Both the position numbers and the translations under genes were made by a program. From Lentimicrobiaceae bacterium (GTDB taxonomy: Bacteria; Bacteroidota; Bacteroidia; Bacteroidales; F082), in the NCBI GenBank assembly GCA_015061295.1, contig SUWU01000004.1, positions 4,436 through 68,435 of the forward strand: DNA of 64,000 bases, given 5' to 3'. The notes below the pieces were generated by a model. It was not told the origin of the DNA, made no database searches, and was given only the letters and a program-made list of their open reading frames with translations. Numbering within the stretch: the first letter of the stretch is position 1; each line of letters begins with the position of its first letter. Below are positions 6,181 through 63,700 of this stretch, in pieces.

Positions 6181-6296
6181 GTCTCTGACAATGACTCTGA
6201 CAATGACTTTGACAATGACTTTGACAATGACTCTGACAATGACTTTGACAATGACCTGAAGACTTGGTGACTTGGAGACTTGGAGACTTGGAGACT
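6181..6296. repeat. Word array R4: 12-mers CTGACAATGACT(C/T) x6, then octamers GACTTGG(T/A) x4.5
   Basis: Starts the nucleotide after the stop of the deaminase-fusion gene and is followed by TAAAAAAAA. Confidence 0.95.
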
Positions 6297-7975: not shown

Positions 7976-8860
7976 ATGAATCACAGAGCAGGTTATGTAA
8001 ATATTATCGGAAAGCCAAATGTCGGAAAATCAACGCTTATGAACGAATTTGTAGGCGAGAAAATTTCTATCGTGACATCGAAAGCGCAGACTACAAGACA
8101 TCGTATTTTGGGTATTGTGAACGGCGATGAGTTCCAAATTGTGTTCTCTGATACGCCTGGAATCATAAAAAATCCCGCTTATAAGATGCACGAAGTGATG
8201 AATCAGTTTGTGAATGTGGCTTTCATCGATGCCGATTTGATACTTTATGTCGTCGATATCACAGATAAAAAAATCGACGAAAAGACGGTGGAGCGACTAC
8301 AAAAAATCAACGATATTCCTATCTTCGTTCTTTTAAACAAGATAGATTTATCCGATCAAGATGGAGTGACGAGCGCTGTCAATTTCTGGCAGAGTACACT
8401 TCCAGCAGCTACTATTTTCCCAATCTCCGCTCTTCATCACGCCAATATAAGTCACATCTTCGATTGTATCTTGGAGAAACTTCCGGAATGTCCGCCTTAT
8501 TTCCCTAAAGACGAGTTTACAGATAGGTCGATGCGTTTCTTTATTTCCGAGATAATAAGAGAGAAAATATTGCTCATCTATAAACAAGAGATTCCATATT
8601 CGGTAGAAGTCGTCGTTGATGCTTACGAAGAAAGCAAGAAGATGATTAATATCAGAGCTACCATCTATGCGGCTCGCGACTCGCAGAAAGCCATATTAAT
8701 AGGTAAGGCTGGCAGCGCTATCAAGAAACTCGGCATCATGGCAAGAGGCGACATCGAAGAGTTTACTGGTAAGAAGATATTCCTCGATCTTAACGTCAAA
8801 GTCAGCAAAGACTGGCGCGACAATGAAGAAGAGCTGAGAAATTTCAGTTATGATTTTTAA
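7976..8860 (+). CDS. era: GTPase Era
   Basis: G1 GKPNVGKST, G3 DTPG, G4 NKID, C-terminal KH domain. 294 aa. Confidence 0.95.
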   Translation: MNHRAGYVNIIGKPNVGKSTLMNEFVGEKISIVTSKAQTTRHRILGIVNGDEFQIVFSDTPGIIKNPAYKMHEVMNQFVNVAFIDADLILYVVDITDKKIDEKTVERLQKINDIPIFVLLNKIDLSDQDGVTSAVNFWQSTLPAATIFPISALHHANISHIFDCILEKLPECPPYFPKDEFTDRSMRFFISEIIREKILLIYKQEIPYSVEVVVDAYEESKKMINIRATIYAARDSQKAILIGKAGSAIKKLGIMARGDIEEFTGKKIFLDLNVKVSKDWRDNEEELRNFSYDF

Positions 8861-8945
8861 GTTAACAATTAACAATGTACAATTTACAATGACAGTTTGA
8901 TATTAGAACTAATTGTTAATTATTCATTGTTAATTGTACATTATT
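8861..8945. repeat. Word array R5: TTAACAA/TGTACAA/TTTACAA arm plus inverted ATTGTTA arm
   Basis: Starts right after the era stop. The arms can pair as a long imperfect hairpin. Confidence 0.9.
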
Positions 8946-8949
8946 TTCG

Positions 8950-8957
8950 TATTTTTG
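8950..8957 (+). promoter_or_regulatory. Candidate -7 box for der
   Basis: tatttttg, 26 nt before the ATG. Confidence 0.45.
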
Positions 8958-8982
8958 CAAATTATAGAAATAGAACAAGAAA

Positions 8983-19585: not shown

Positions 19586-19678
19586 CACTCTGACTTTGAC
19601 TTTGACACTGACTTATGGACTTGGGGACTCGGTGACTTGGGGACTTGGGGACTCGGTGACTTGGGGACTTGGCGACTT
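19586..19678. repeat. Word array R10: hexamers GACTTT/GACACT, then octamers GGACTTGG/GGACTCGG/TGACTTGG
   Basis: Lies in the divergent gadC/hpt spacer and is followed by TTAAAAAAAA. Confidence 0.95.
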
Positions 19679-20945: not shown

Positions 20946-22814
20946 ATGCAGAACGTTTTTGATACAAAGGTTTTTAAGGTCGTGTCGAAAGGCAAGGACG
21001 ACATCTCTTACGGATGGAAGGGTGCCGGAGTAGCTGTGCCTGTGTTTTCTCTTAAAAGCAGCAGCAACTTTGGCATTGGCGAGTTCCTCGACCTTAAACT
21101 ACTCGCTGATTGGTGCAATAAAGTCGGATTGAAAATGATACAGATTCTTCCGATCAACGACACCCGCACCGACGGCTCATGGGACAACTCATATCCTTAT
21201 AAAGCCATCTCGACAAAAGCTCTGCATCCTATCTATCTTAACCTCGACAAGATGGGACAACTCGACGATAAAAGCGACAGAGAATATTTCAGGCAACAGA
21301 AAGAAATATTAAACGCCAAAGACTACGTCGATTATCCCGAAGTGATGAAAGTGAAAGAAGCCTACTTCAAGAAAATCTTTCATCAGACATGGAATGACAT
21401 TAAAGAAAAAGAAGATTATAAAGTATTCTTCAACGAGAACAAAGACTGGCTCGTGCCATACGCATCTTTCTGTAATCAACGAGACTACAAGTCAACAAGA
21501 CAACAAGTAGAGTCGCAAAGTTCAATGTCAACGTCAGAGTCAGTGTCAATGTCAGTGTCAACGTCAGAGTTCTCATACTTCCTTCAATATCACCTCGACA
21601 AGCAGCTCAAAGAAACCATCGATTATCTTCATGAGAAAGGCATCGCTTTGAAAGGCGACATTCCTATCGGCATAGGCAGAGACAGCGTTGACGCCCTTGC
21701 CAACCCTGAACTTTTCAACTTAGACTGTCAAGCTGGTGCTCCTCCCGATGCCTTTGCCACCGAAGGACAGAATTGGGGTTTCCCCACTTACAATTGGGAG
21801 GCGATGGCTAAAGACGACTACAGATGGTGGCGCGAACGACTCACACATATGAGCCGCTACTTCGACGCCTACCGCATCGACCACATATTAGGATTCTTCA
21901 GGATATGGGAGATACCGATAGAATATTCACAAGGAACAATGGGGCACTTCTCCCCTGCCCTGCCTCTTGAGATTGGAAACGGGAAACGGGTACGGGAAAC
22001 GGGTACGGGGAACGGGTACGGGTACGGGGAACGGGATACGTCACTACTTCTCAGTGACTCGGTTACTCAGAGACTTGGTGACTTATTCCTAAAAGATAAG
22101 CACGACAGCAACAAATTTCATCCGAGGATAAACATGCACCTCACTCAGACTTATAACGAGTTGGATGAGACACAGAAAGAAACGTTAAACAAAATTTACG
22201 ACGATTATTTCTATCATAGAAATGAGGCGCTTTGGAAAGCAGAGGCTCTGAAGAAGTTACCTAAAATCATCGAGGCAAGCGACATGTTGGTATGCGGTGA
22301 AGACCTTGGCATGGTTCCAGCCTGCGTTCCAGAAGTGATGCAGCAACTTAATATCTTAAGTCTTGAAGTACAAAGAATGCCTAAGAAATTCGGCGCCACA
22401 TTCGTCAATCCAAAAGAAAATCCTTATCTCAGCGTCGATACCACATCCACGCACGACACCTCTACATTAAGAGGATGGTGGGAAGAAAACGGCGAGCTGA
22501 CAAATCGTTTCTACAGAGAGATGTTAGGTCATCATGAAGGCGCTCCTTATTTCGCAGAGCCTTGGGTTTGCAAAGAAATCATCAAACAACATATGGAATC
22601 TTCTTCGATGTGGGTCATCATTCCTATCCAAGACTATATAGCAATGGACGGCGACTTCCGCTGGGACCAGACCCAGAGAGAACAAATCAACATTCCTGCA
22701 AACCCACATCATCACTGGTGCTATAAAATGTATCAAAGCATAGAAGAACTTATCGAAAGAAATTATCTCAACGATATGATTTCTGATATAATCAAAGAAT
22801 CAGGAAGAAACTAA
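20946..22814 (+). CDS. malQ: 4-alpha-glucanotransferase (GH77) carrying two repeat-derived in-frame insertions
   Basis: VQILPINDT, YRIDHILGFFRIWEIP, CGEDLGMVP, STHDTSTLRGWW GH77 motifs. Low-complexity segments SMSTSESVSMSVSTSE and GNGKRVRETGTGNGYGYGERD..SDSVTQRLGDL are encoded by the word arrays. Confidence 0.9.
   Translation: MQNVFDTKVFKVVSKGKDDISYGWKGAGVAVPVFSLKSSSNFGIGEFLDLKLLADWCNKVGLKMIQILPINDTRTDGSWDNSYPYKAISTKALHPIYLNLDKMGQLDDKSDREYFRQQKEILNAKDYVDYPEVMKVKEAYFKKIFHQTWNDIKEKEDYKVFFNENKDWLVPYASFCNQRDYKSTRQQVESQSSMSTSESVSMSVSTSEFSYFLQYHLDKQLKETIDYLHEKGIALKGDIPIGIGRDSVDALANPELFNLDCQAGAPPDAFATEGQNWGFPTYNWEAMAKDDYRWWRERLTHMSRYFDAYRIDHILGFFRIWEIPIEYSQGTMGHFSPALPLEIGNGKRVRETGTGNGYGYGERDTSLLLSDSVTQRLGDLFLKDKHDSNKFHPRINMHLTQTYNELDETQKETLNKIYDDYFYHRNEALWKAEALKKLPKIIEASDMLVCGEDLGMVPACVPEVMQQLNILSLEVQRMPKKFGATFVNPKENPYLSVDTTSTHDTSTLRGWWEENGELTNRFYREMLGHHEGAPYFAEPWVCKEIIKQHMESSSMWVIIPIQDYIAMDGDFRWDQTQREQINIPANPHHHWCYKMYQSIEELIERNYLNDMISDIIKESGRN
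21482..21572. repeat. Word array R12 inside malQ: CAAGTCAACAAG words, then hexamers GTCAAT/GTCAGT/GTCAAC/GTCAGA
   Basis: Read in frame as STRQQVESQSSMSTSESVSMSVSTSE. Confidence 0.9.
21975..22085. repeat. Word array R13 inside malQ: GGGAAAC/GGGTAC units, then octamers CTCAGTGA/CTCGGTTA/CTCAGAGA/CTTGGTGA
   Basis: Read in frame as GNGKRVRETGTGNGYGYGERD..SDSVTQRLGDL. Confidence 0.9.
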
Positions 22815-23328: not shown

Positions 23329-23465
23329 TGATGACGATGATAATGACGATGACGATGAACAATGACAATGACGATGACAATGACGATGAACAATGACGAG
23401 AGTTAGAATCAAAAATCATTGTCATTGTCATTGTCAATGTCATTGTCAGTGTCAATGTCAGAGTC
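23329..23465. repeat. Word array R14: GATGAC/AATGAC arm and inverted CATTGTC/CAGTGTC arm
   Basis: Fills the whole spacer between the convergent OsmC-family and DUF4296 genes. Confidence 0.95.
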
Positions 23466-23834
23466 TCACTTTTTTTTCTTAATTTCTTCTTGTTTGGTAG
23501 TGAAGTAAGCGTTAACAGAATCTACTATTGATTTCATCTTAGGAAGGTCGTTGGTATTGTAATAGTTAAGGTTCTCGATAAATATGGAGTCTGTGATACC
23601 ATAATGAGAGAATATAGTGTCGTAGGCTCGTTGTTTTAGGTTTGTTACGCTTTGGTTCCTGCCTCTTCTATAGTTGATAGATTGTTCTATGATCTGTACG
23701 TCAATCATAACATCTACCATTTGTTGTTCTGTCAACAATATCGACGGTGCTCCTTCTTTTGATTTATCATTATCACAAGCAATCAAAAGCAAGAGCATCG
23801 TCATTAGTAATATTGTCAATTTTTTAATTTCCAA
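23466..23834 (-). CDS. DUF4296-like lipoprotein
   Basis: Lipobox LLIAC. Size and position immediately downstream of recQ, overlapping it by 11 nt. Confidence 0.6.
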
Positions 23835-27125: not shown

Positions 27126-27174
27126 GAGACGCATCAATGTTGTGTTCATTTTGAAGGTATCATTGATACGTCTC
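27126..27174 (+). terminator. Long hairpin after kpsF
   Basis: 14-nt arms gagacgcatcaatg / cattgatacgtctc with one mismatch. Confidence 0.4.
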
Positions 27175-34810: not shown

Positions 34811-35272
34811 ATGAAAAAAGCATTTAAAAAATTATCAACAATCTCTCTTTTTGTTTTGATAGCATTGCTGCCATCTTGCGACCCTGGATTTTATGATACA
34901 TTTAAAATAAAAAATGAATTAGGCAGAGACATCAAAGCTACTGATCTCCACGGTCATGATACTATCACCATCAAAAACGGCGAAGTTAAAATCGCCCTTG
35001 AAAATGGAGGATTGGGAACTTCACAATTCTCATATACAAATACTGACCGTTATCTACAAGAATACCCTGTCATTATCTTCGACAACAGCGTTGCATATAC
35101 AAGTAAGAACACTGAATTGATAAAACAATTTGAAAAGTCAATATTTAAAATGTCATGTTGGGAGATTTTATTTTTTGAAGATAGAAAAATGAGTGATAAT
35201 TGCGAGGTACTTTATACTATTACAGAAGAAGACTATCAGAATGCTATCATCTTAAACGAAATGAATAAATAA
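34811..35272 (+). CDS. Hypothetical lipoprotein
   Basis: Lipobox LLPSC. 153 aa, AT-rich, no family recognised. Confidence 0.55.
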   Translation: MKKAFKKLSTISLFVLIALLPSCDPGFYDTFKIKNELGRDIKATDLHGHDTITIKNGEVKIALENGGLGTSQFSYTNTDRYLQEYPVIIFDNSVAYTSKNTELIKQFEKSIFKMSCWEILFFEDRKMSDNCEVLYTITEEDYQNAIILNEMNK

Positions 35273-35305
35273 TATGGACAAAGTCTGTTGTCCGTTGACA
35301 TAAAA
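35267..35305 (+). repeat. 39-bp perfect direct repeat, copy 1 (left boundary of the ATPase cassette)
   Basis: aaataatatggacaaagtctgttgtccgttgacataaaa. Contains the small hairpin ggacaa..ttgtcc. Confidence 0.95.
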
Positions 35306-35358: not shown

Positions 35359-36597
35359 ATGATATTTAAAAGGGAGCAATATATAGAGAAGTTAATTAAT
35401 AACAAACATAATCACCTTGTCAAGATTGTTACTGGTTTAAGACGTGTAGGCAAGTCGTTTTTGCTTTTTAATCTTTACAAACAACATCTTATAAATAATG
35501 GTGTTCCTGAGAATCATATCATAGAATTTCAACTAGATTCTTTTTCACACAGAAAATATCGTAAAGCAGAGTTCCTATTTGAACACGTAGAAAGTTTGTC
35601 CAAACAAGACCATCAGATGTACTATGTTATGATTGATGAAGTACAGATGTTAGAGGATTTTGTAGATGTTTTGAATGGTTTTCTTCATATAAAAAATCTT
35701 GATGTATATGTAACAGGCAGTAACGCTAAATTTTTATCGTCAGATATAGTAACAGAGTTTAGAGGAAGAGGCGTACAGATTCATCTTCAACCTCTATCAT
35801 TCAAAGAAATAAAGGAAAAATCAACGGAAGACATTCTTTCTCTATGGAAAGATTACATATATTACGGTGGGTTACCTATGGTTGTCCTGGAGAAAAGCAA
35901 ATCACGTAAAGCAGAAATTCTTCAAGAACTAATTAGAGAAACGTATCTTAGCGATATTATCAACAGAAACAGCATTAAGAATGACGCTGAAATAGAGGAA
36001 CTTTTTTGTCTTTTGGCTTCCAACATAGGAGCTTTAACTAATCCTAATAAACTAGCAAACACGTTTGTTAGTGAAAAAAAAGTAAAGATAAGTCATAGCA
36101 CAATAAAATCTTACATCGATTATTTTATAGATTCATTTCTTATTAATAAAGCTATTAGATATGATATCAAAGGTAAGAAATATATAAATTCTCCTTATAA
36201 ATATTATTTTTCTGACATCGGATTGCGCAATGCCCTTCTCAACTTTCGACAAATAGAGAGTACACACATCATGGAAAATATCATATATAATTACATGATA
36301 GGTACAGGTTATAAAGTAGATGTAGGAATTATCACTCATTATTACAAAGATTCTACCGGCAAAACGACAAGAAGTGTATTAGAAATTGATTTTGTATGCA
36401 ATAAAAGTAGTGAGCGTATATATATTCAATCGGCATATTCAATACCTAACAAAGAAAAGCAACAACAAGAACAACGTTCGCTTACATTAACTGACGATTC
36501 TTTCACAAAAATAATATTGACAACTGATAATATACCAATTCATACATTGGATAATGGTATCATTATGATGAATGTATATGATTATCTTCTCAAATAA
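35359..36597 (+). CDS. AAA_14 / DUF4143-type ATP-binding protein
   Basis: Walker A GLRRVGKSF, Walker B YVMIDEVQ. C-terminal half is typical of the DUF4143 (predicted PD-(D/E)xK-like) family. Has its own -7 box at 35311-35318. Confidence 0.8.
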   Translation: MIFKREQYIEKLINNKHNHLVKIVTGLRRVGKSFLLFNLYKQHLINNGVPENHIIEFQLDSFSHRKYRKAEFLFEHVESLSKQDHQMYYVMIDEVQMLEDFVDVLNGFLHIKNLDVYVTGSNAKFLSSDIVTEFRGRGVQIHLQPLSFKEIKEKSTEDILSLWKDYIYYGGLPMVVLEKSKSRKAEILQELIRETYLSDIINRNSIKNDAEIEELFCLLASNIGALTNPNKLANTFVSEKKVKISHSTIKSYIDYFIDSFLINKAIRYDIKGKKYINSPYKYYFSDIGLRNALLNFRQIESTHIMENIIYNYMIGTGYKVDVGIITHYYKDSTGKTTRSVLEIDFVCNKSSERIYIQSAYSIPNKEKQQQEQRSLTLTDDSFTKIILTTDNIPIHTLDNGIIMMNVYDYLLK

Positions 36598-36599
36598 TA

Positions 36600-36638
36600 A
36601 AATAATATGGACAAAGTCTGTTGTCCGTTGACATAAAA
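36600..36638 (+). repeat. 39-bp perfect direct repeat, copy 2 (right boundary of the ATPase cassette)
   Basis: Identical 39-mer, 1333 bp downstream of copy 1. Confidence 0.95.
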
Positions 36639-37688: not shown

Positions 37689-39554
37689 ATGACCATTCCC
37701 GACAAAATAAAATCAATCCTAAAAACCATTCCCACCGATCCAGGAGTGTATCAATATTTTGATGAGAAAGGTGAGATTATTTATGTCGGGAAAGCTAAGA
37801 ACCTGAAACGCCGCGTACACAGTTACTTCAACAAACAGCAGCAGAGCAGAAAGGTCAGCGTACTCGTGAGTCGCATCGCCGACATCAGATTTACCGTCGT
37901 GAACAGCGAGATGGAAGCGCTTCTCCTTGAAAACAATTTCATCAAGCAATATAAGCCGCGTTATAATATCTTGTTGAAAGACGACAAGACATACCCTTGG
38001 ATTTGTATTAAAAACGAACGTTTCCCGCGTATCTTCCTCACGAGGAAAAAAGTCAACGACGGCTCAACATATTTCGGACCTTATCCTTCGGTGATGACAG
38101 CAAAGACACTGCTTGAAATGCTGAGGCAGCTCTACCCTATCAGAAACTGTAAATTAATTTTAAAGGAAGAGAACATAAAGAACAACCATTATCGACCTTG
38201 TCTTGAATATCATATCGGAAACTGCAAGGCTCCTTGCGATGGAAGTATCAACGAAGATGACTATAACAAGATGATTTACAATGTTAAGAAAGTCATCAAA
38301 GGTAACATTCAGGAAGTCTTACGCGATATGAAATCGCAGATGATGGAGCACGCGGCAAAGTTAGAATTTGAACAGGCACAAGTCATAAAAGACAAATACG
38401 ATTTATTAGAAAACTATCACGCCAAGTCGGTAGTTTGCAGCAACACAGCCTACGACATGGAGGTCTTTTCTTTTGAAGACGCTGGCAATTCTTTCTATGT
38501 CAATTACATGAAAATCGTGGAAGGTGCCATCATACAATCGCATTCTTTTGAAATAAAACGTAAGTTGGAAGAGACAGCAGAAGAACTGCTTTCGATAGCG
38601 ATTGTTGAGATACATCAGATGAATGCTGGCACTGACAATGACTCTGACATTGACATTGACAATGACATTGACAATGACTCCTATATTAATAAGAATAAAA
38701 ATATTAGAGAGATTATTGTTCCGATAGAATTGAATATTAATATAGAAGGTGTGCGGCTGACTATTCCGCAGCGAGGCGAGAAATATGAGATTTTGGAACT
38801 GTCGCAGCGTAATGCTAAACAATATCGACTTGAGGTAGAGAAGCTACGTACCCTCGTCGATCCGGAGCGCCATACGAAGAGAATCCTAAACCAGATGAAA
38901 GAAGACCTGAAACTTCCTGTGCTACCAGAAGTGATAGAATGCTTCGACAACTCCAACTTTCAAGGCGACTATGCCGTAGCCGCGATGACGCAGTTTGTCA
39001 ATGCGAAACCTAACAAGAGCGGCTACCGACATTTCAATATCAAGACAGTAGAAGGGCCCAACGACTTCGCCTCTATGGAGGAGATAATATATAGAAGGTA
39101 TAGCAGACTTCTTAACGAAAACCAACGACTCCCCGATTTGATTGTCGTCGATGGCGGCAAGGGACAGCTTTCTTCAGCAGTTAAAATATTACAACAGTTA
39201 GGATTAAACGGTAAAATCAGCATCATCGGCATCGCGGAGAAGTTGGAAGAAATATATTTCCCTGGCGACAGCATACCTTTATATATAGACAAACGCTCCG
39301 AGACTTTGAAGGTGATTCAACACATAAGAGACGAAGCCCATAGATTCGGCATCACACATCACAGAAAGAAATTCGAGAAAGGCTTCATTCACTCAGAGCT
39401 CAACGACATCAAAGGCATTGGCAAGCATACCGCTGAGAAATTGATGTTAGAATTAAAATCTGTCAAGAATATCAAAGAAGCTGATTTAGAGACATTAACA
39501 GAGATTATCGGCAAAGCCAAGGCTGATATTATATGGAAATATTTCCATTCCTAA
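37689..39554 (+). CDS. uvrC: Excinuclease ABC subunit C, with a repeat-derived in-frame insertion
   Basis: GIY-YIG (GVYQYF..IIYVGKAKNL), UVR domain, endonuclease and HhH domains. Linker TDNDSDIDIDNDIDND is encoded by a GACAAT/GACATT array. Confidence 0.95.
   Translation: MTIPDKIKSILKTIPTDPGVYQYFDEKGEIIYVGKAKNLKRRVHSYFNKQQQSRKVSVLVSRIADIRFTVVNSEMEALLLENNFIKQYKPRYNILLKDDKTYPWICIKNERFPRIFLTRKKVNDGSTYFGPYPSVMTAKTLLEMLRQLYPIRNCKLILKEENIKNNHYRPCLEYHIGNCKAPCDGSINEDDYNKMIYNVKKVIKGNIQEVLRDMKSQMMEHAAKLEFEQAQVIKDKYDLLENYHAKSVVCSNTAYDMEVFSFEDAGNSFYVNYMKIVEGAIIQSHSFEIKRKLEETAEELLSIAIVEIHQMNAGTDNDSDIDIDNDIDNDSYINKNKNIREIIVPIELNINIEGVRLTIPQRGEKYEILELSQRNAKQYRLEVEKLRTLVDPERHTKRILNQMKEDLKLPVLPEVIECFDNSNFQGDYAVAAMTQFVNAKPNKSGYRHFNIKTVEGPNDFASMEEIIYRRYSRLLNENQRLPDLIVVDGGKGQLSSAVKILQQLGLNGKISIIGIAEKLEEIYFPGDSIPLYIDKRSETLKVIQHIRDEAHRFGITHHRKKFEKGFIHSELNDIKGIGKHTAEKLMLELKSVKNIKEADLETLTEIIGKAKADIIWKYFHS
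38632..38690. repeat. Word array R18 inside uvrC: hexamers GACAAT/GACATT/GACTCT
   Basis: Read in frame as TDNDSDIDIDNDIDND. 38633-38678 is identical to 56259-56304. Confidence 0.95.
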
Positions 39555-45607: not shown

Positions 45608-46570
45608 ATGCAATTTCCAATATTTAAACGTACTAACAAATTAGAAAGGATATTTATATTATCGGCATTAGTCGTTATCGGTTTAATCATAGGTAGCGTA
45701 ATAGGTGTCATATTTCCATTTGTGACAGGACAAGATGTAACGTCGTTAAGTTCACTTCGTTTCATGCAAATCACCTCGCAAATATTCACTTTCGTACTTC
45801 CTCCTATGTTATACGCGATGTTAGTAAAAGAAGAACCAATGACAGCCTTAGGGTTAAAGAAAGTCACATATCATTGGTTCGTAATAGGTATTGCGATGAT
45901 GTATGCTATCTTACCTCTTAACAACATCTTTGCCGAATGGAATGCTGGCCTAAAATTGCCCGAATCGATGAGCGGTATTGAAGAAATGATGAGATCGATG
46001 CAAGAATCTGCCACAGAACTAACCGAAAGGATGTTAAATGTCAACAACATAGGAGGACTCATCATAAACCTCATTATGATAGCAGGTTTGGCTGCTTTAG
46101 GTGAAGAGCTGCTATTCCGCTCTATAATACAGACATCGTTAATAAAGATTTGCAGAAATGCACATATAGGAATATTCTTAGCTTCAGCGATATTCTCTTT
46201 CATTCACTTTGAATTTTACGGATTCATCCCACGACTTGTATTAGGACTGTTAATGGGATATATGTTCTATTATTCACGAAGCATCTGGGTACCAATGGCG
46301 ATGCACTTCGTCAACAACGGAACAGCCGTGGTTCTATATTACCTTAACAACATCGGGATAATAAATGTTGATGTTGATACATTCGGACAGACGGGAGTAT
46401 TGCCTCTAATAATGAGCATTGTAATAATGATTGCTCTGTTCTGGCTTGCGATAAGGAGAACGAGGAATGAGAATGACAATGACAATGACAATGACGATGA
46501 CAATGACAATGACGATGACAATGACGATGACAATGACGATGACAATGACGATGACAATGACAATGAATAG
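45608..46570 (+). CDS. CPBP-family intramembrane glutamic endopeptidase with a repeat-encoded poly-Asp/Asn tail
   Basis: EELLFRS, FSFIHF, HFVNN CPBP motifs. The last ~35 residues (NDNDNDNDDDNDND...) are encoded by a GACAAT/GACGAT array. Confidence 0.85.
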   Translation: MQFPIFKRTNKLERIFILSALVVIGLIIGSVIGVIFPFVTGQDVTSLSSLRFMQITSQIFTFVLPPMLYAMLVKEEPMTALGLKKVTYHWFVIGIAMMYAILPLNNIFAEWNAGLKLPESMSGIEEMMRSMQESATELTERMLNVNNIGGLIINLIMIAGLAALGEELLFRSIIQTSLIKICRNAHIGIFLASAIFSFIHFEFYGFIPRLVLGLLMGYMFYYSRSIWVPMAMHFVNNGTAVVLYYLNNIGIINVDVDTFGQTGVLPLIMSIVIMIALFWLAIRRTRNENDNDNDNDDDNDNDDDNDDDNDDDNDDDNDNE

Positions 46571-53829: not shown

Positions 53830-55029
53830 ATGAAAATTTTAGTTTTAAACTGTGGCAGTTCTTCTATCAAGTATCAGCTTTTTGATATTGATGACAATCA
53901 GCATACTGTCATGGCAAAGGGTCTCCTCGAGCGTATAGGTCTCGAAATGGGAGAGTTTACTCACAAATGGAATGGCGAGAAATATTACGAACAACTTCCT
54001 ATTCCAAATCACACCGTAGGTATCAGCATAGTTCTCAAAGCCTTGCTCGACGAAAATCATGGTGTCATCAAATCATTAGATGAAATTGGTGCTGTTGGAC
54101 ATCGTTTAGTTCATGGTGGCGAGAAGTTCACCAAGAGCGTCCTCATCGATGGTAGCGTCATGGAACTCATGGAAGAACTCGTTGACCTCGCTCCTCTTCA
54201 CAACCCAGCATGTATGGCAGGCGTGAAAGCTGTCACCGAATTACTACCTAACGTAAAACAAGGAGGCTGCTTCGACACTGCCTTCCATTCAACGATGAAA
54301 CCTGAGGCTTACCTCTACCCTATCCCTTACGAATATTACGAAAAATATCGTGTTCGCCGTTACGGCTTCCACGGAACAAGTCATAAATACGTCTCTGAGA
54401 ACGCAGCTAAATTCGTTGGCAAAGACTGGAAAGACCAAAAAATTATCACATGCCATCTCGGCAGCGGCGCTTCTATAGCAGCAGTACAAAACGGCAAATC
54501 TGTTGATACATCAATGGGCTTCACTCCTGTTGAAGGACTCATGATGGGCAGCCGTACTGGCGACTTAGACCTTGGCGTATTCATGTATATAGCTGAAAAA
54601 GAAGGCTACGACCTTAAACAGATGAACACTCTCGTCAACAAAAAATCCGGCCTCATCGGAATAACAGGCGACAAACAAGATATGCGCGACGTGAGAGCTG
54701 GCAAAGAAGCTGGCGATGAACGCGCGACATACGCTTTCAATATGTTCAAGCATCGAGTAAAGAAATATATAGGTGCTTACGCAGCAGTGATGAATGGCGT
54801 TGACATCATCGTCATGACCGGAGGAATAGGCGAAAACGCATGGTTTATGAGAGGTCCTATACTTCAAGATATGGAATATCTCGGCGTCAAAATCGACATG
54901 AGCATCAACGATGGCTTGATGGGCGAAGCTAAAGTCATCTCAACACCTGACTCAAAAGTTACCGTCGTCGTGTTCCCAACCGACGAAGAATATATGATCG
55001 CTAAAGATACTTACGACCTTGTGAAGTAA
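53830..55029 (+). CDS. ackA: Acetate kinase
   Basis: ILVLNCGSSSIKYQLF, GHRLVHGG, YGFHGTSH, GGIGEN. Confidence 0.95.
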   Translation: MKILVLNCGSSSIKYQLFDIDDNQHTVMAKGLLERIGLEMGEFTHKWNGEKYYEQLPIPNHTVGISIVLKALLDENHGVIKSLDEIGAVGHRLVHGGEKFTKSVLIDGSVMELMEELVDLAPLHNPACMAGVKAVTELLPNVKQGGCFDTAFHSTMKPEAYLYPIPYEYYEKYRVRRYGFHGTSHKYVSENAAKFVGKDWKDQKIITCHLGSGASIAAVQNGKSVDTSMGFTPVEGLMMGSRTGDLDLGVFMYIAEKEGYDLKQMNTLVNKKSGLIGITGDKQDMRDVRAGKEAGDERATYAFNMFKHRVKKYIGAYAAVMNGVDIIVMTGGIGENAWFMRGPILQDMEYLGVKIDMSINDGLMGEAKVISTPDSKVTVVVFPTDEEYMIAKDTYDLVK

Positions 55030-55125
55030 GATGCTGAGTTACTGAGATGCTGAGATGCTGAGTTACTGAGATGCTTAGCATCTTAGCATCTTAGCATCTT
55101 AACATCTTAGCATCTTAGCATCTTA
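55030..55125. repeat. Word array R24: octamers GATGCTGA/GTTACTGA arm and inverted TTAGCATC x6 arm
   Basis: Fills the spacer between convergent ackA and the choloylglycine hydrolase gene exactly, stop to stop. Confidence 0.95.
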
Positions 55126-56196: not shown

Positions 56197-56256
56197 AATC
56201 TTTATATTGTTTTTTTGTTGAGAGATAAACAATATAAGATTGAAAAAGTTTTATTC

Positions 56257-56326
56257 TTTGACAATGACTCTGACATTGACATTGACAATGACATTGACAA
56301 TGACATTGACGATGACAATGACTCAG
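56257..56326. repeat. Word array R25: hexamers GACAAT/GACATT/GACGAT
   Basis: Intergenic. Shares a 46-nt exact string with the uvrC insertion. Confidence 0.95.
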
Positions 56327-56396
56327 ATATTAAAAAAAGACGCAAAGACTCTCTATCTCTGCGCCTTTATAAACTCTACAACTTTATCCTTTCACA

Positions 56397-58289
56397 TCAC
56401 TTAACAACTAATTTTCTTACGGAGCTATTTTCTCCTTGTTGTATCATGATGAAATAAACGCCATTCTCAACATCTTCGATATTTATTGAAGAGACGTTTC
56501 CTGTGAGTTCTGTCGATTTCACGCAGCGACCTGTCACGTCGAGGATATTTACTTGAGTATCTTTATCGTTCTCCATCTCAACATAAATCATTGAAGTCGC
56601 TGGGTTTGGATACACTGTAAATTGAATGTCGTTCAACTCGATGCAGCCGACTGTTGAGAAGTCTTTAGTTGTTATTATTCCTCTCTCACCTTCTGCGTTG
56701 TAGCCGAATGCCATAACGATATAATCTATATCTGCTTCAAGCTCATCCATTGTTCCTTCTACTGCACCTTCTGTTGGCATACCATATTCATAGAGATAAT
56801 CAGCGCAGAACTCTTCACCATATTGTTCATATTGATCTTTTGGAAGAACGCCATAGAAATATTCTGTTGTATATTCGTTAGGTGTGAATGTCAATTTCAC
56901 TGATGTTGGTGACAACACTTCTACTTCTATTGCTATCTCCGAAGTACCTGTTTCCACATCATCATTCAATGGAGCGACAGTAGTATGCAGACGACTTGTC
57001 AACAATCTATAATCTGGAGTACCATCATAGCGATAACCTAAGACCAACAATTTACCATCTCTTTGCAAATCGACATCTAAAGAAAGTACTTCTACATCTG
57101 ACCATGGAAGAGGGACAATACCTGTCATAAAATCCTCATTCAGTGAGCCATCAGGATTAAGGTTATAAGCATATGCTCGATAGTTAGAGTTTTCTGTATC
57201 TTGAGTATAAAGTGTTCCAAATATCTGATCATCGTGAGCGACTACAAATCCGCGACTATAATTATGGCATTGATCACCTTTTAGGACTTCTAATATCACC
57301 AATCCATTATCGCCAAATGAAGCATCAATTTCACCATCCGTAGTAAGACGTGCGATATAAGTACCTGTGCTAAAATTATCTTCATCTGATGTATCCAAAT
57401 AACCCAACACAAGACATTTACCATCAGATTGCATATCAATAGAATAGACATCGGCATTACCTTCACTAACTCCAAGCAAGATGCTACCATTATCACCGAA
57501 TGTAGCGTCAATGGTACCGTCAGCATTAGCTCTACTTACTCTTGGCACAGGGATACCCCAATAATAGCCTTCCTTTTGTACAAAAGCGTTACCTCCTACC
57601 ATGAGTTTATCATCCTGATCGATACACATGGAGTAGATATAAGTAGAAGAACTCTCTTCTGTCAACCACATTTTACCGTTATCTCCATATGATAAATCCA
57701 ATTCACCTTCGGGAGTATAACGTTCCACTATAGCACCGTCATAAGAAGTATTGTTAGCATAAAATTTACAACCTCCTAAATATAAATTACCTTGCGAATC
57801 CATTGCTATAGCTCGAGCCTCATTCATATCTGAAAGAGCATATCCATTATCACCAAAGTTAGTATTAGCGAAACCATTCTCATCAACACATAAGATATAT
57901 GATTTATTCATAACCCCATCTGCATAGATATGTCCTGCTATATACAAATAATTATCATCTGTCAATATTGAAGCGAAAGGCTCATTTATGGCGGCTGTCA
58001 TATATCTAAAGAAAGCATATCCATTATCACCGTATGTCTCATCTATCGAGCCATCAGGATTTTGGCGTGTGACACAGATATAATAATCTGCGCCTTCTAT
58101 TGATGATTTTGAGATAACCAATATCTTGCCGTCTTTCTGTGCATGTATCGTAGCTTGCAAATCTCTATAATCTGTTGGGTTAAAATCAACAGTACCACCG
58201 TTGCCGTAAGTCTCATCTAATGTTCCTGGATCCTGTGCGAAGCCAACGAACATCAACAACATAAATGCTAAAGTAAATATTTTTTTCAT
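56397..58289 (-). CDS. T9SS-secreted delta-60-repeat (beta-propeller-like) protein, paralog A
   Basis: Signal peptide. Repeated [TS][YF]GDNG[YKSL] motifs about every 60 aa. C-terminal FTVYPNPATSMIYVE..GVYFIMIQ sorting domain. Confidence 0.8.
   Translation of the reverse strand: MKKIFTLAFMLLMFVGFAQDPGTLDETYGNGGTVDFNPTDYRDLQATIHAQKDGKILVISKSSIEGADYYICVTRQNPDGSIDETYGDNGYAFFRYMTAAINEPFASILTDDNYLYIAGHIYADGVMNKSYILCVDENGFANTNFGDNGYALSDMNEARAIAMDSQGNLYLGGCKFYANNTSYDGAIVERYTPEGELDLSYGDNGKMWLTEESSSTYIYSMCIDQDDKLMVGGNAFVQKEGYYWGIPVPRVSRANADGTIDATFGDNGSILLGVSEGNADVYSIDMQSDGKCLVLGYLDTSDEDNFSTGTYIARLTTDGEIDASFGDNGLVILEVLKGDQCHNYSRGFVVAHDDQIFGTLYTQDTENSNYRAYAYNLNPDGSLNEDFMTGIVPLPWSDVEVLSLDVDLQRDGKLLVLGYRYDGTPDYRLLTSRLHTTVAPLNDDVETGTSEIAIEVEVLSPTSVKLTFTPNEYTTEYFYGVLPKDQYEQYGEEFCADYLYEYGMPTEGAVEGTMDELEADIDYIVMAFGYNAEGERGIITTKDFSTVGCIELNDIQFTVYPNPATSMIYVEMENDKDTQVNILDVTGRCVKSTELTGNVSSINIEDVENGVYFIMIQQGENSSVRKLVVK
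56400..56954 (-). repeat. About 555-bp near-identical block, copy A (3' end of delta-60 paralog A)
   Basis: Aligned by eye to 58368-58922 without indels. Only about a dozen substitutions. Confidence 0.9.
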
Positions 58290-58342: not shown

Positions 58343-58364
58343 TTTGTCTGTGTCTGCGTTAATA

Positions 58365-60284
58365 TTATTTAACAACTAATTTTCTTACGGAGCTATTTTC
58401 TCCTTGTTGAATCATGATAAAATAAACGCCATTCTCAACATCTTCGATATTTATTGAAGAGACGTTTCCTTTGAGTTCTGCCGATTTCACGCAGCGACCT
58501 GTCACGTCGAGGATACTTACTTGAGTATCTTTATCGTTCTCCATCTCAACATAAATCATTGAAGTCGCTGGGTTTGGATACACTGTAAATTGAATGTCGT
58601 TTAACTCGATGCAGCCGACTGTTGAGAAGTCTTTAGTTGTTATTATTCCTCTCTCACCTTCTGCGTTGTAGCCGAATGCCATAACGATATAATCTGCATC
58701 TGCTTCAAGATCATCCATTGTTCCTTCTACTGCACCTTCTGTTGGCATACCATATTCATAGAGATAATCAGCGCAGAAGTCTTCTCCATATTGTTCATAT
58801 TGATCTTTTGGAAGAACGCCATAGAAATATTCTGTTGTATATTCGTTAGGTGTGAATGTCAGTTTCACTGATGTTGGTGACAACACTTCTACTTCTATTG
58901 CTATCTCTGAAGTACCCGTTTCTCCGCCTTGTTGTGGAGCAACACTTGTATGGATACGGCTCGACATTAAATTCAAGTCAACAAAGTTAGGATTTGTTGG
59001 TTGCATATCAACCCAACCAACGACGACTATCTTACCATCTTTCTGAATATCAAGAGAGGTTGACTGTCCGTTAGGATATTCACTCCATGGAAGAGGAAGC
59101 AAGCCTGTACCAGCGAAGTCTTCGTTAGCAGTACCATCAGCATTCATATTATACGCATATTGACGATATCTATCTTGTACATAATCTTTTGTATAAACAA
59201 CTCCGAAGATTTGGTCATCATGAGCGACTTCTATATCATTACTATAGTTTTCACAGCCATCACCAACAGCGATCTCGTATGTTGTAAATCCATTATCACC
59301 AAATGAAGTATCAAATTCACCATCCTTAGTAATACGTGTTACATAAGTTGCTGTTCTACCATAGTTATCTTCAGCATCAAAATCTGTTGTTTCATTCCAA
59401 CCGACAACGATATATTTTCCATCAGATTGTACTTCAATATCACGTATTTGACTATTTATCTCATTGATGCCCATAATAAAGCATCCATTATCAGCAAATG
59501 TATTATCCATGCTACCATCTGTATTAAGTCTCCACAATCTTGGATCTCTAATCTGTGAAGAATAAGCTGGTTTCTCAACGAACACTATACCACCTGCAAG
59601 AAGTTTATCATCTTCCACCACTTTGATAGCGTCAATATATGAAGAAAAACCTGGTTCTTGTATCAATAAATCACCGCCATCGCCCCATGAAGCATCTAAT
59701 TGTCCATCTGGTGTATAACGTTGTATAAATGCTACATCTAAGCCAGCACTAGTATAACCAGCAGCATAGATTCTTCCTTGTGAGTCTATTGCTATATCTA
59801 AGAATTCTGTACCGTCTCTATCGCACATAACCCAACCATTATCACCAAAATCAGTATTAGCGAAACCATTTTCATCAATACATACGACATTTGCTGTGCT
59901 AATGACTTCTTCTGAATAAATCTTGCCTGCTACATACAATTGTCCATCTTCACCTAATACCGATGCTATTGGAGAATTTTTATATACTATCTGTTGTTGG
60001 AAGAAAGCATATCCATTATCACCATATGTCTCATCTGTTGAACCATCAGGGTTTTGACGTGTGACACAGATATAATAGTTAGCGCCATCTTTACGCGAGT
60101 TAGAGACTATCAATATCTTTCCATCATCTTGTACATGAACCATAGGATCGTTTTCAAGATATTGTGTAGGATTAACTACGACAGTACCGCCGTTGCCGTA
60201 GGTCTCATCTAATGTTCCTGGATCTTGTGCAAAACCAATGAACATCATCATGCACATAAGCACTAATGTAAACAGTTTTTTCAT
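58365..60284 (-). CDS. T9SS-secreted delta-60-repeat protein, paralog B
   Basis: Same architecture as paralog A. The last 185 codons are nearly identical at nucleotide level. Confidence 0.8.
   Translation of the reverse strand: MKKLFTLVLMCMMMFIGFAQDPGTLDETYGNGGTVVVNPTQYLENDPMVHVQDDGKILIVSNSRKDGANYYICVTRQNPDGSTDETYGDNGYAFFQQQIVYKNSPIASVLGEDGQLYVAGKIYSEEVISTANVVCIDENGFANTDFGDNGWVMCDRDGTEFLDIAIDSQGRIYAAGYTSAGLDVAFIQRYTPDGQLDASWGDGGDLLIQEPGFSSYIDAIKVVEDDKLLAGGIVFVEKPAYSSQIRDPRLWRLNTDGSMDNTFADNGCFIMGINEINSQIRDIEVQSDGKYIVVGWNETTDFDAEDNYGRTATYVTRITKDGEFDTSFGDNGFTTYEIAVGDGCENYSNDIEVAHDDQIFGVVYTKDYVQDRYRQYAYNMNADGTANEDFAGTGLLPLPWSEYPNGQSTSLDIQKDGKIVVVGWVDMQPTNPNFVDLNLMSSRIHTSVAPQQGGETGTSEIAIEVEVLSPTSVKLTFTPNEYTTEYFYGVLPKDQYEQYGEDFCADYLYEYGMPTEGAVEGTMDDLEADADYIVMAFGYNAEGERGIITTKDFSTVGCIELNDIQFTVYPNPATSMIYVEMENDKDTQVSILDVTGRCVKSAELKGNVSSINIEDVENGVYFIMIQQGENSSVRKLVVK
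58368..58922 (-). repeat. About 555-bp near-identical block, copy B (3' end of delta-60 paralog B)
   Basis: See copy A. Confidence 0.9.
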
Positions 60285-60571: not shown

Positions 60572-61864
60572 ATGATTGATAAAGTCAGAAATATTTCTAT
60601 TGAGGATTACGATTATCCACTCCCCGATGAGCGCATCGCTAAGTATCCTTTAAGTGAACGTGACGCTTCGAAGTTGTTAGTATTAAACAAAGACAACATA
60701 TCATCTTCTCATTTTAAAGATATAGGCGACTTCCTCCCAAAGGATTCTCTTCTTATCTTTAACGAGACAAAAGTCGTGAGGGCAAGACTTCAGTTTACCA
60801 AAGACAGTGGCGCTGCCATAGAGATATTCTGCTTAGAACCCATAACAGGCAACGGCGATTACCAACTCGCCTTCAGTAGCAAATCACCATCAAGATGGAA
60901 GTGCTTAGTAGGGAACTCCCGCCGCTGGAAAAACGAAACGGCTTTAAGTCTCCGAGTCCCCGTGTCCCCGTGTCCCCGTGTCCCCGTGTCAAGGTCATTG
61001 TCAGTGTCAGTGTCAGAGTCAACGTCAATGTCAGAGTCAACTCTTTATGCGAAGCGTTTGGAGAAGAACGACAATTACTCTGTGGTAGAGTTTTCTTGGG
61101 AGCCTGAGGAGTTAAGTTTCGCCGAGGTGTTGGAAGCAGCAGGCGAGATACCTCTTCCTCCTTATCTTCACCGCGAGGCAGAAGAGTCGGACAGAGAACG
61201 CTATCAGACTGTCTTTGCAAGACATGAAGGCTCAGTGGCCGCTCCAACAGCGGGGCTACATTTTACCGATGATCTAATTAACGACCTAAAAGAAAAAGGA
61301 ATATCTTTCGAAAAAGTGACGCTACATGTCGGAGCAGGAACGTTCCGTCCCGTGTCGTCGGAGACGATAGGAGAACATGAGATGCACTCCGAGACGATAG
61401 TAGTTAAAAAATCATGCATCGAAAATATATTAAGGAATATCGACAAGACCATCATTCCCGTCGGCACTACAAGCATGAGAACGATAGAGTCGTTATATTG
61501 GATAGGACTTATGTTGAAAGAAGAAGGTTTGGAAGAACGACATCTTCATCTTGAGCAGTGGTTTCCATATAAAGAAAGAGAGACACTTCCGCCAGCAGAA
61601 AAATCTCTCTCAACAATATTAGATTATCTAAAATCTCATAATCTTAACGAGTTACACGCCACCACAGCTTTAATGATAGCACCATCGTGTAAGATAAACA
61701 TCGCCAAAGCTCTGATAACAAATTTCCACCAACCTAAGAGCACCTTATTATTATTGGTGTCGGCTCTCATCGGAGAACGATGGAAAGAAGCATACCAATA
61801 CGCCTTAGATAACGACTTCAGATTTCTGAGCTACGGCGACAGTTGCCTTTTTATCAATGAATAA
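60572..61864 (+). CDS. queA: S-adenosylmethionine:tRNA ribosyltransferase-isomerase with a repeat-derived in-frame insertion
   Basis: YDYPLPDERIAKYP, IPLPPYL, YQTVFA..GSVAAPTAGLHFT, NFHQPKSTLL motifs. The segment SLRVPVSPCPRVPVSRSLSVSVSESTSMSEST is encoded by word arrays. Confidence 0.9.
   Translation: MIDKVRNISIEDYDYPLPDERIAKYPLSERDASKLLVLNKDNISSSHFKDIGDFLPKDSLLIFNETKVVRARLQFTKDSGAAIEIFCLEPITGNGDYQLAFSSKSPSRWKCLVGNSRRWKNETALSLRVPVSPCPRVPVSRSLSVSVSESTSMSESTLYAKRLEKNDNYSVVEFSWEPEELSFAEVLEAAGEIPLPPYLHREAEESDRERYQTVFARHEGSVAAPTAGLHFTDDLINDLKEKGISFEKVTLHVGAGTFRPVSSETIGEHEMHSETIVVKKSCIENILRNIDKTIIPVGTTSMRTIESLYWIGLMLKEEGLEERHLHLEQWFPYKERETLPPAEKSLSTILDYLKSHNLNELHATTALMIAPSCKINIAKALITNFHQPKSTLLLLVSALIGERWKEAYQYALDNDFRFLSYGDSCLFINE
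60948..61041. repeat. Word array R26 inside queA: octamers GTCCCCGT x4, then hexamers GTCAGT/GTCAGA/GTCAAC/GTCAAT
   Basis: Read in frame as SLRVPVSPCPRVPVSRSLSVSVSESTSMSEST. Confidence 0.95.
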
Positions 61865-61983
61865 TGTACAATGAACAATGACAATGACAATGACAATGAA
61901 CAATGACAATGAACAATGACAATGAACATTATACATTGTACATTATTAATTGTTAATTGTCAATTGTTAATTGTTAATTGTCT
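61865..61983. repeat. Word array R27: AATGAC/AATGAAC arm and inverted ATTGTTA/ATTGTCA arm
   Basis: Lies between convergent queA and the SulP gene. The right arm includes the last 5 SulP codons and its stop. Confidence 0.95.
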
Positions 61984-63700
61984 TCGACACTTCTTCTGCT
62001 CTGGCGAGCGCCTTATGGATGTGGTCGAGAACGTTTTCCTCTCCTACCATATCGACGATGCCAGCTTGTTTGATAGAGGCATGTACACTTTCATTAACAC
62101 CAGATAATATTATGATATGACCTTCGTCCTGTGCCGACTTGATGAAAATCTCAAGGTTGTGAATACCAGTAGCGTCAATAAAACTTACCTTACGCATTCT
62201 GATGATACGAATGACATTATCGGAATGACGATATGACAACTCCTCGAATTTATTAGCGATACCGAAGAAGAAAGGTCCTTCAATCTCATAGACTTCTGTC
62301 TTTGCAGGAATGATAAGTTTCTCATCTTGCTCGCCATCATGATGAACATCCATCTCATCTTGAATGACAGAAATACTTGTGCTTTCCATGACACGTTTCA
62401 AGAACAATATGATAGCCATAACCAAGCCAATTTCAATAGCGATTGTCAAGTCGAAGATGACGGTGAGTAATAATGTAGTGAAGAGCACTGCGATGTCGCT
62501 TCTCGATTGTTTGCACATTGAGACGATTGTTCTCCAGCCGCTCATGTTATAAGAAACGACGATAAGTACGCCAGCGAGACACGACATCGGAATGAGACCG
62601 ACGAGGCTACCTAAGAACAGCAACACCATTAATAATACTACAGTGTGAATGATGCCCGCCACTGGAGTGCGACCGCCATTGTTGATATTCGCCATGGTAC
62701 GAGCTATAGCACCTGTTGCAGGGATACCTCCGAAGAAAGGAACGACGACGTTAGCGATACCGTTACCGATAAGCTCTGTGTTGGAGTTATGCCTGTCGCT
62801 GATAACACCGTCGGCTACCATTGCAGATAGTAACGATTCTATTGCGCCCAACATCGCGATGGTGAAAGCTGCAGGAAGAACTGCTTGTGCCGTTGAGAAG
62901 AAAGTCTCGCCTTCTGCCAAAGCTGGCATTCTGAATGAAGGAAGACCTGAAGGCAACTCGTACAAATCGCCGATAGTCTTGATAGAATCGACACCAGCAT
63001 ATTTCTTCAAAATCCATGTAACGATAGTCATGATGATGATTGCCAACAACGAGCCAGGAATCTTCTTTGAGATTTTAGGAGTGAATGCTATTATCAAGAT
63101 GCTGAGTACACCTATTAATAATGCCCACCAATTTATGTTAGAAAGGTTTTGGAAGTAACAAGCCCATTTGTCGATGAAGTTGGCAGGGACGTTTTCGATG
63201 CCGAGGCCGAAGAGGTCGTTCATCTGTGTTGAGAATATTGTTATCGCTATACCGCCTGTGAAACCTACTATGATAGGATAAGGCATGAACTTGATGATGC
63301 TTCCGAGTTTAAAGACACCCATCGCGATCTGCATCAGACCTGCTAAGATAGTAGCGATAGCGAGACCTGTCAAGCCATATTGTTGGATGATGCCATAGAT
63401 GATAACGATGAAAGCTCCCGTTGGACCGCCTATCTGCACTTTGGAGCCACCGAGAGCAGAGATGATGAAACCAGCCATGATAGCGGTGACGAGACCTTCG
63501 GTAGGACCTACGCCAGAAGCGATACCGAAAGCGATGGCTAAAGGAATAGCCACTATACCTACGATGACACCAGCCATCGCATCTTTAGCGAACATCTGTT
63601 TGTTGTAATTTTTTAATGTTGAAAACAAGCGCGGCTTGAAATCAATGGAAAATCTACGGCTTTTCTTTGCCTTGTTGTTAACAGTATTTGTTTCTGCCAT
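61967..63700 (-). CDS. SulP-family anion transporter with C-terminal STAS domain
   Basis: Polytopic N-terminal part (GGPTGAF, NTELIGNGIAN) plus a STAS-like C-terminus. The last codons TINN and the stop lie in a heptamer array. Confidence 0.9.
   Translation of the reverse strand: MAETNTVNNKAKKSRRFSIDFKPRLFSTLKNYNKQMFAKDAMAGVIVGIVAIPLAIAFGIASGVGPTEGLVTAIMAGFIISALGGSKVQIGGPTGAFIVIIYGIIQQYGLTGLAIATILAGLMQIAMGVFKLGSIIKFMPYPIIVGFTGGIAITIFSTQMNDLFGLGIENVPANFIDKWACYFQNLSNINWWALLIGVLSILIIAFTPKISKKIPGSLLAIIIMTIVTWILKKYAGVDSIKTIGDLYELPSGLPSFRMPALAEGETFFSTAQAVLPAAFTIAMLGAIESLLSAMVADGVISDRHNSNTELIGNGIANVVVPFFGGIPATGAIARTMANINNGGRTPVAGIIHTVVLLMVLLFLGSLVGLIPMSCLAGVLIVVSYNMSGWRTIVSMCKQSRSDIAVLFTTLLLTVIFDLTIAIEIGLVMAIILFLKRVMESTSISVIQDEMDVHHDGEQDEKLIIPAKTEVYEIEGPFFFGIANKFEELSYRHSDNVIRIIRMRKVSFIDATGIHNLEIFIKSAQDEGHIIILSGVNESVHASIKQAGIVDMVGEENVLDHIHKALARAEEVSKTINN

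Follow-up and report, generated by a model that had tools for sequence, protein, structure and literature searches.

Results

An in-frame hexamer array in uvrC and its intergenic counterpart

The 64-kb stretch of Lentimicrobiaceae DNA analyzed here (contig SUWU01000004.1; hereafter the window) contains core genes only. One of these, uvrC (37689-39554, plus strand), carries an in-frame array of hexanucleotide repeats that is the subject of this study. The gene was identified from its Pfam domains and from the names of its homologues, which are annotated as excinuclease ABC subunit C in metagenome-assembled genomes (MAGs) of Lentimicrobiaceae and Bacteroidales. Its 621-aa product is full-length, with matches to GIY-YIG, UvrC_RNaseH (residues 256-379), UvrC_RNaseH_dom (residues 405-555) and HhH. 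The array consists of eight units, GACAAT GACTCT GACATT GACATT GACAAT GACATT GACAAT GACTCC (38634-38681, plus strand), and is recovered by Tandem Repeats Finder (TRF) with a period of 6 and 7.7 copies at 38633-38678. It is not palindromic and shows no notable fold signal (z = -0.69). It occupies the middle of a variable segment of 27 codons (38622-38702, plus strand), composed of NAGT, 16 repeat codons and YINKNKN, whose limits were set by an alignment of 120 orthologous proteins and by codon comparison with relatives L003/L007, L005, L032 and L062.

A second array, of 11 hexamers, is found in a non-coding spacer (56260-56325, plus strand; TRF period 6, 10.7 copies at 56259-56322), some 60 nt ahead of a CBAH-family hydrolase gene, which starts near 56197 on the minus strand. 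Its first 7.7 units (56259-56304) are those of the uvrC core, after which the sequence continues with GATATTAA to position 56333. A terminator scan combined with folding placed an intrinsic terminator at 56336-56368 (minus strand), belonging to a gene for a 630-aa protein with a type IX secretion system (T9SS) tail; on that strand, the array begins directly past the terminator's T-run.

An exact 46-nt match between the two loci had been reported in a preliminary description of this DNA. Both copies of the string, TGACAATGACTCTGACATTGACATTGACAATGACATTGACAATGAC, were found, at 38633-38678 in uvrC and at 56259-56304 in the spacer, together with a relative carrying three mismatches at 6186-6231. 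No match to the 46-mer appeared in 100 shuffles of the sequence. Over its 21.6 kb, an independent assembly from ENA (L013) matches the window at 100% identity and carries both arrays; therefore, the match is not an assembly artefact. The 46-mer was said not to be the consensus of a regular repeat, and its GACNNT units do follow one another in an irregular order (AAT TCT ATT ATT AAT ATT AAT), with TRF scoring 82% matches at period 6 and 80% at period 18. A shorter related string had been noted at the start of another array, and this was also seen: the array at 6184-6258 (plus strand), made of (GACAAT GACTYT)6 followed by AGACTTGG octamers, opens with 18 nt, CTGACAATGACTCTGACA, common to both. 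The position attributed to the uvrC array needs amending in one respect. The string is read in frame, as TDNDSDIDIDNDIDNDS, but it falls within the match to Pfam UvrC_RNaseH (PF22920) at residues 256-379 and not in an inter-domain linker.

When one genome per GTDB species was searched, the exact 46-mer gave no match; either the species representative lacks this allele or the species is not represented. A 27-nt core was likewise unmatched in IMG/VR, so that a phage vector for the array core is not indicated by these comparisons.

The uvrC insertion is real but old

Many of the 120 aligned UvrC orthologues (86-100% identity) have five ordinary residues (M/N-E-N/S-N/S-N) between HQM and IKEI, and others have acidic inserts of varied lengths at exactly this position. 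In the array-free relatives L003/L007 the DNA reads CAG ATG / ATG GAA AGT CAT AAC / ATC AAA. An insertion had been proposed at this site, and the alignment bears it out, the array-free orthologues having 5 codons (M-E-S-H/N-N) where the window has 27. The idea that the copying event gave rise to this insertion does not survive the same comparison, as GAC units already occupied that codon position before the species arose. Sister species L032, whose UvrC is 93% identical, has four units (GACATT GACTCT GAAAAT GACTCC) and then AATATTAATAAG, the flank after its array being AAT ATT AAT AAG. L062 (91%) has three units (GACTCG GACACT GACTCT) and then CAT ATT AAC AAG, and L005 (about 86%) has a GAC array of its own. 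The flank, [T/A/C]AT ATT AA[T/C] AA[G/A], is thus conserved uvrC coding sequence in sister species. At the same site, L060 carries, in place of hexamers, two perfect small palindromes, GGACGCAT-TCG-ATGCGTCC and GGACACATT-G-AATGTGTCC.

As judged from these orthologues, the uvrC insertion is real but old, predating the species, and its site is a length-tolerant loop that has gained repeats of the intergenic type more than once. Placing this loop at the protein surface would follow from the Pfam envelope and from the length variation among orthologues. An AlphaFold2 model built from a shallow alignment had a mean pLDDT of 38.8, too low to be of use, and a search by sequence found no solved structure covering UvrC residues 256-379.

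The shared unit order points to copying among at least three arrays

Could two arrays have reached the same order independently, by slippage drawing on the same few unit variants? The small alphabet and the fast change of the arrays would help such a coincidence, and matches of 19-34 nt are common between arrays of different strains. However, a first-order Markov chain over unit variants gives a probability of about 1.2e-3 for the seven uvrC units even though it was trained on six other alleles of the spacer locus itself, and a zero-order estimate gives about 1e-4. Among the pairs of uvrC and spacer alleles, seven shared units are seen in the window pair only, the remaining pairs sharing one to five.

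Similarity also extends past the repeats, with head, tail and flank in common. The tail motif GACAATGACTCNNATATTAA occurs without mismatch at 38670-38689 and 56314-56333 only; in uvrC it corresponds to the end of the array plus non-repeat flank, GACAATGACTCCTATATTAA (38670-38689, plus strand), which a zero-mismatch pattern match showed to be common to the spacer copy. The complete uvrC element (57 nt) aligns with the spacer element with one gap of 18 nt, or three units, and two mismatches.

A third array, GACTCT GACATT GACACT GACAAT GACATT GACAAT GACAAT GACAAT (23418-23465, minus strand), matches the 39-nt core GACTCTGACATTGACATTGACAATGACATTGACAATGAC at 38 of 39 positions (23427-23465, minus strand). 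It forms the right arm of a hairpin in which an array faces its inverted copy, between OsmC and DUF4296. Alleles of this locus in other strains also begin TCT ATT ATT AAT ATT, with exact overlaps with the core of 34 nt in L050 and 28 nt in L054. Given the Markov estimate, the similarity past the repeats and the third array, chance is unlikely, in agreement with the preliminary description, and we regard coincidence as highly improbable. The uvrC, 56.26-kb and 23.4-kb arrays are, on the strength of these matches, related by copying.

The OsmC/DUF4296 spacer (23329-23465 in the window) contains a hairpin of array and inverted array, 95-209 nt long, in most strains. In L051 and L055 (6390-6424) a 33-nt terminator is all that is present, its stem, GAGACAATG...CATTGTCTC, being 9 bp long. 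Since two strains have a bare terminator where others have arrays of 95-209 nt, arrays may grow from, or collapse to, hairpin stems.

Strain variation at the two loci

Strains of the same species were recovered by exact-protein lookups. They show 1.3-3% nucleotide divergence, and the window proteins adjoining uvrC differ from theirs by one to three residues. Only three strain types have uvrC and the second array on one contig; a JGI metagenome scan with a Wzy-like protein, aimed at finding more of them, returned two distant loci only. Four alleles of the uvrC array were seen in the species: one has 10 units, and the other three have 8 and are told apart by point changes. At the spacer, each of seven strain types has an allele of its own, with 5 to 14 units between near-identical flanks. 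Allelic differences consist of whole-unit insertions and deletions together with mixed substitutions.

In L037/L038, the uvrC allele is identical to that of the window while the spacer allele is AAT TCT ATT AAT GAT AATx5 ATT GAT AAT TCA, with only 23 nt in common with uvrC. In L047, which has a near-identical uvrC allele, the two arrays share 19 nt. Because identical or near-identical uvrC alleles share so little with their own spacers, the 46-nt identity is, on the alleles sampled, specific to the window strain type, and the two arrays are not maintained as matching copies. Ongoing homogenization was dropped for a further reason: comparison of uvrC with the 23-kb and 56-kb alleles revealed no clear within-strain (diagonal) excess.

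The same alleles bear on whether a conversion private to the window strain replaced either array with the sequence of the other not long before sampling. Seven units are shared in the window pair alone, and the L037/L038 spacer array, accompanied by an identical uvrC, differs only in its middle, the ends (AAT TCT ATT ... ATT GAT AAT TCA) being alike, as a short internal conversion tract predicts. Yet the spacer array of a more distant strain, L027, also holds ATT ATT AAT ATT, and the 23-kb arrays of several strains hold the same order, which is accounted for more simply if that order is ancestral at these loci; the allele matrices also lack an excess of within-strain similarity. We consider such a recent conversion rather unlikely. 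Instead, the presence of the order in L027 and in the 23-kb arrays of several strains indicates that copying probably predates most of the strain divergence.

The CBAH spacer in related species

At the CBAH spacer, hexamers are found in the window species only. Sister species L032 and L060 have an octamer array and a palindromic element there, and no array is present in the distant relatives L002 and L007. In L032 and L060, the block CBAH-ackA-pta-...-yidD immediately precedes the ABC/AIRS/uvrC block; in the window species it lies 17 kb downstream of uvrC, and gene order differs from that in L032/L033/L060. On the other side of the spacer, the adjacent genes for T9SS-tail beta-propeller proteins of 630 and 639 aa are recent paralogues whose 3' ends are 97% identical over 300 nt (segments compared: 56391-56690 with 58359-58658, and 58009-58258 with 60001-60250).

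A genome rich in short tandem arrays

UvrC and its neighboring proteins lead to uncultured Lentimicrobiaceae and Bacteroidales, with related MAGs from sources including yak caecum and roe deer colon. After merging, the 64 kb holds 40 short tandem arrays, of which 29 are intergenic or at gene ends; the units measure 6, 7, 8, 9 and 13 nt. Related loci of about 20 kb have 2.6-12 arrays per 10 kb; one 5-kb contig has none, nor does a distant Brumimicrobium locus. An Rfam scan of the window returned two tRNAs only. The uvrC/spacer pair is one case within a genome-wide family of arrays and not an isolated event. L062 (3841-10008) has a different repertoire of units (AAAATCTG, AAAATTG, ATAAACT), with almost no GAC hexamers outside uvrC; hence, repeat families turn over between species.

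In many of the spacers that separate convergent genes, an array precedes an inverted copy of itself, and the two fold into a long hairpin that is perfect or nearly so (z as low as -8.8). Examples are 23329-23472, which includes the third array (-67.5 kcal/mol, z = -8.8), 55025-55125 (-57.6 kcal/mol, z = -8.8), 61860-61985, 8858-8960 and 2039-2130. Their probable role is termination in both directions. Another small dispersed terminator-like element is a 47-nt direct repeat (94% identical; 35259-35305 and 36592-36638), which contains the hairpin GGACAAAGTCTGTTGTCC and follows two consecutive genes.

Three more genes in the window contain in-frame arrays, all length-polymorphic between strains with the frame kept, save in one malQ allele. 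malQ, for a GH77 4-alpha-glucanotransferase (open reading frame, ORF, 20946-22814, plus strand), has two internal arrays, both of variable length. The first (21476-21566) is made of CAACAAGA octamers and antisense GAC hexamers (SMSTSESVSMSVSTSE), and the second (21978-22083) of 13-nt units of the (A/T)ACGGG type with octamers of the CTCAGTGA type. The exceptional allele is that of L051, in which loss of one 13-nt unit split malQ into ORFs of 362 and 226 aa. At the first malQ site, L053 (4562-4679) and L056 have instead an in-frame palindromic element, GAGACGCGTCAATGA...CATTGACACGTCT. In queA (ORF 60572-61864, plus strand), a composite array (60948-61041) combines (GTCCCCGT)4-5 with nine antisense GAC hexamers and measures 90, 78 or 54 nt depending on the strain. 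The gene for a CPBP/Rce1-like protease (ORF 45608-46570, plus strand) ends in an in-frame tail, (GACAAT/GACGAT)15 (46475-46564), read as DNDNDNDD...; other strains have 8-29 units at this position, and the homologues of other species (289-294 aa) lack it.

The palindromic element seen in malQ, about 45-52 nt long and of the form GAGACGYRTCAATG-loop-CATTGAYRCGTCT, occurs at many loci throughout the clade (27126-27174 in the window; L002-L011, L032 and L060). Its stem words, GTCAATG and CATTGAC, are the same as those in the hexamer arrays.

No sign of a dedicated element at the two arrays

These structures raise the question of a dedicated mobile or templated system that delivers ready-made arrays or hairpin elements to spacers and also, with the frame kept, to genes. 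It might be a small non-autonomous element dependent on a transposase or HUH enzyme whose gene lies elsewhere, a repeat-adding polymerase, or a retroelement. Such a system would account for the recurrence of one composite architecture of hexamers and octamers, CTCT-(GACNNT)n-(GGNGACTY)m, at intergenic positions 6183-6296 and 19592-19678 and, antisense and in frame, in queA. It would also account for the clade-wide palindromic element, found in frame in the L053/L056 malQ exactly where other strains have the hexamer array, and for the uvrC loop of another lineage holding palindromic hairpins instead of hexamers. At the uvrC and 56-kb arrays themselves, however, the flanks contain neither target-site duplications nor terminal inverted repeats, and the array ends are not sharply conserved. 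Furthermore, domain searches and gene tables revealed no transposase, RAYT-type, reverse-transcriptase or phage genes in the 64-kb window, and the core is unmatched in IMG/VR. A dedicated system thus seems to us improbable. Of the mechanisms put forward in the preliminary description, copying between loci stands, and transposition-like movement finds no support in the window. Judged by their flanks, the two arrays also do not fit a miniature inverted-repeat transposable element (MITE) or other transposon-borne repeat.

Discussion

Origin, direction and timing of the copied stretch

The observations above establish the 46-nt identity, the uvrC insertion relative to array-free orthologues, the relative age of the two arrays, the hypervariability and the third copy; what we infer from them about direction, mechanism and timing can be put as follows. 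The uvrC repeat is an old in-frame hexanucleotide array, a long simple sequence repeat located in a length-tolerant loop of the RNase H-like middle domain. The GACNNT arrays that follow one irregular order (TCT ATT ATT AAT ATT AAT) form, in this species, a small set of paralogues numbering three or more (uvrC and the spacers at 56.26 kb and 23.4 kb), the shared order being the footprint of DNA copying between arrays. The likeliest route would be ordinary recombination, through either ectopic gene conversion or templated break repair primed by GAC-periodic homology, and a dedicated mobile element would not be required. After copying, the arrays would diverge by replication slippage, fast in unconstrained spacers and slowly in uvrC, whose alleles would be altered mainly by point substitution. 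The copy event would be older than the divergence of most sampled strains, with the window strain representing the best-preserved copied stretch. Taken as a whole, this account, with copying probably from uvrC to the spacer followed by slippage, is in our opinion somewhat more probable than not. It upholds in substance the copying inferred in the preliminary description, but as an event that is neither recent, nor unique to the uvrC/spacer pair, nor transposition-like.

Two arguments concern the direction. First, the uvrC array is, by comparison with the sister species, older than the spacer array, because L032 and L062 have GAC units in uvrC and hexamers at the CBAH spacer are confined to the window species. 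Second, the spacer possesses uvrC's ancestral head (GACAAT GACTCT), its tail (GACAAT GACTC-) and the flank ATATTAA, which in sister species belongs to the conserved part of the uvrC coding sequence (Y/N/H-I-N-K). The most likely direction would therefore be from uvrC to the spacer.

Several considerations weigh against this account. The unit alphabet is small (AAT, ATT, GAT, TCT), so that partial convergence is easy, and the Markov null is rough. The flank on which the direction depends is a short AT-rich stretch of 7-8 nt, part of which abuts the terminator's A-run. The choice between an old copy and a strain-private conversion rests on three strain types with both arrays on one contig. Finally, a third source locus elsewhere in the genome may have fed both arrays, and a dedicated enzyme may be encoded outside the 64-kb window.

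A more far-reaching alternative is that an active, sequence-directed process plants TGAC-core arrays and hairpin elements around the genome and swaps them between loci, the in-frame loops of uvrC, malQ and queA among them. We hold this to be a long shot. If true, the irregular unit orders would be natural barcodes of the process, which would constitute a mechanistically new dispersal route for tandem repeats in bacteria.

Relationship to known repeat systems

Three comparisons with known systems led to rejection. A CRISPR-like reading of the arrays was considered and discarded. A diversity-generating retroelement does not fit either: no reverse-transcriptase domain was found in the window, the copies are identical over 46 nt, and the alleles differ by unit insertions and deletions plus mixed substitutions. 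As to a phase-variable contingency gene, every uvrC allele is in frame, with an array length divisible by 6 nt. A Fur-box-like character of the GACAAT/GATAAT hexamers was entertained as a conjecture only. The arrays resemble variable-number tandem repeats (VNTR) and contingency loci, which change by slipped-strand mispairing, in that copy number varies between strains by whole units. Conserved flanks enclose 5-14 units in the spacer, 8 or 10 in uvrC and 8-29 in the CPBP protease tail, as is typical of VNTR. In contrast to contingency loci, gain or loss of hexamer units causes no frameshift that could turn uvrC on or off, and what stands out here is the sharing of sequence between loci rather than local expansion.

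Rickettsia palindromic elements (RPE), which are found in frame in housekeeping genes, belong to the intragenic MITE-like repeats (PMC10969869). Both they and the present arrays are dispersed families whose members sit in frame within unrelated housekeeping genes that are not destroyed by them, and both are also intergenic. The uvrC array is, like an RPE, an in-frame dispersed repeat absent from orthologues. However, RPEs are palindromes of about 150 bp that encode conserved peptides, whereas the uvrC insert is a non-palindromic hexamer array, variable in unit number and sequence, and has neither the fixed-length palindrome nor the conserved peptide.

The closest relatives are the long simple sequence repeats (LSSR) of prokaryotic genomes, with units of 5-11 nt (Mrazek et al. 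2007, as summarized in PMC4679880). The latter source also deals with cyanobacterial heptamer repeats and with the intergenic TAACTGA repeats of Beggiatoaceae, Cyanobacteria and a few Bacteroidetes, and states, on the spread of the heptamers, that "no mechanism is evident" (PMC4679880). A full-text literature search found no description of such arrays in Lentimicrobiaceae. The uvrC and spacer arrays are head-to-tail repeats of 5-11-nt units beyond chance expectation (TRF; no matches in shuffles), and on the loci sampled (the window and the loci of about 20 kb) the genome is LSSR-rich. With the LSSR and heptamer families it shares numerous arrays of 6-9-nt units, mostly intergenic or at gene ends, lineage-specific repertoires, tolerance within genes of units divisible by three, and a similarly obscure means of spread. 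In contrast to these families, several unit families coexist in the window, many with a TGAC core; arrays are often paired with an inverted copy to form long hairpins; arrays are also internal to core genes (uvrC, malQ, queA); and different loci share an irregular higher-order arrangement of units, which is direct evidence of copying between arrays.

How dispersed short tandem repeats spread in bacteria is an old question, raised for the cyanobacterial heptamers and for the Beggiatoaceae TAACTGA repeats. The capacity of UvrC, MalQ and QueA to carry hypervariable, repeat-encoded loops bears on annotation, on strain typing and on the tolerance of enzymes to insertions. Compared with the systems above, the arrays described here are one case of a genome-wide, strain-variable repeat family related to the known LSSR families, and not a new defence or mobile system. 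They are of value chiefly because they allow the exchange of sequence from one tandem array to another to be traced: irregular orders that can be followed across loci and co-sampled strains can reveal which array copied which, and how often.

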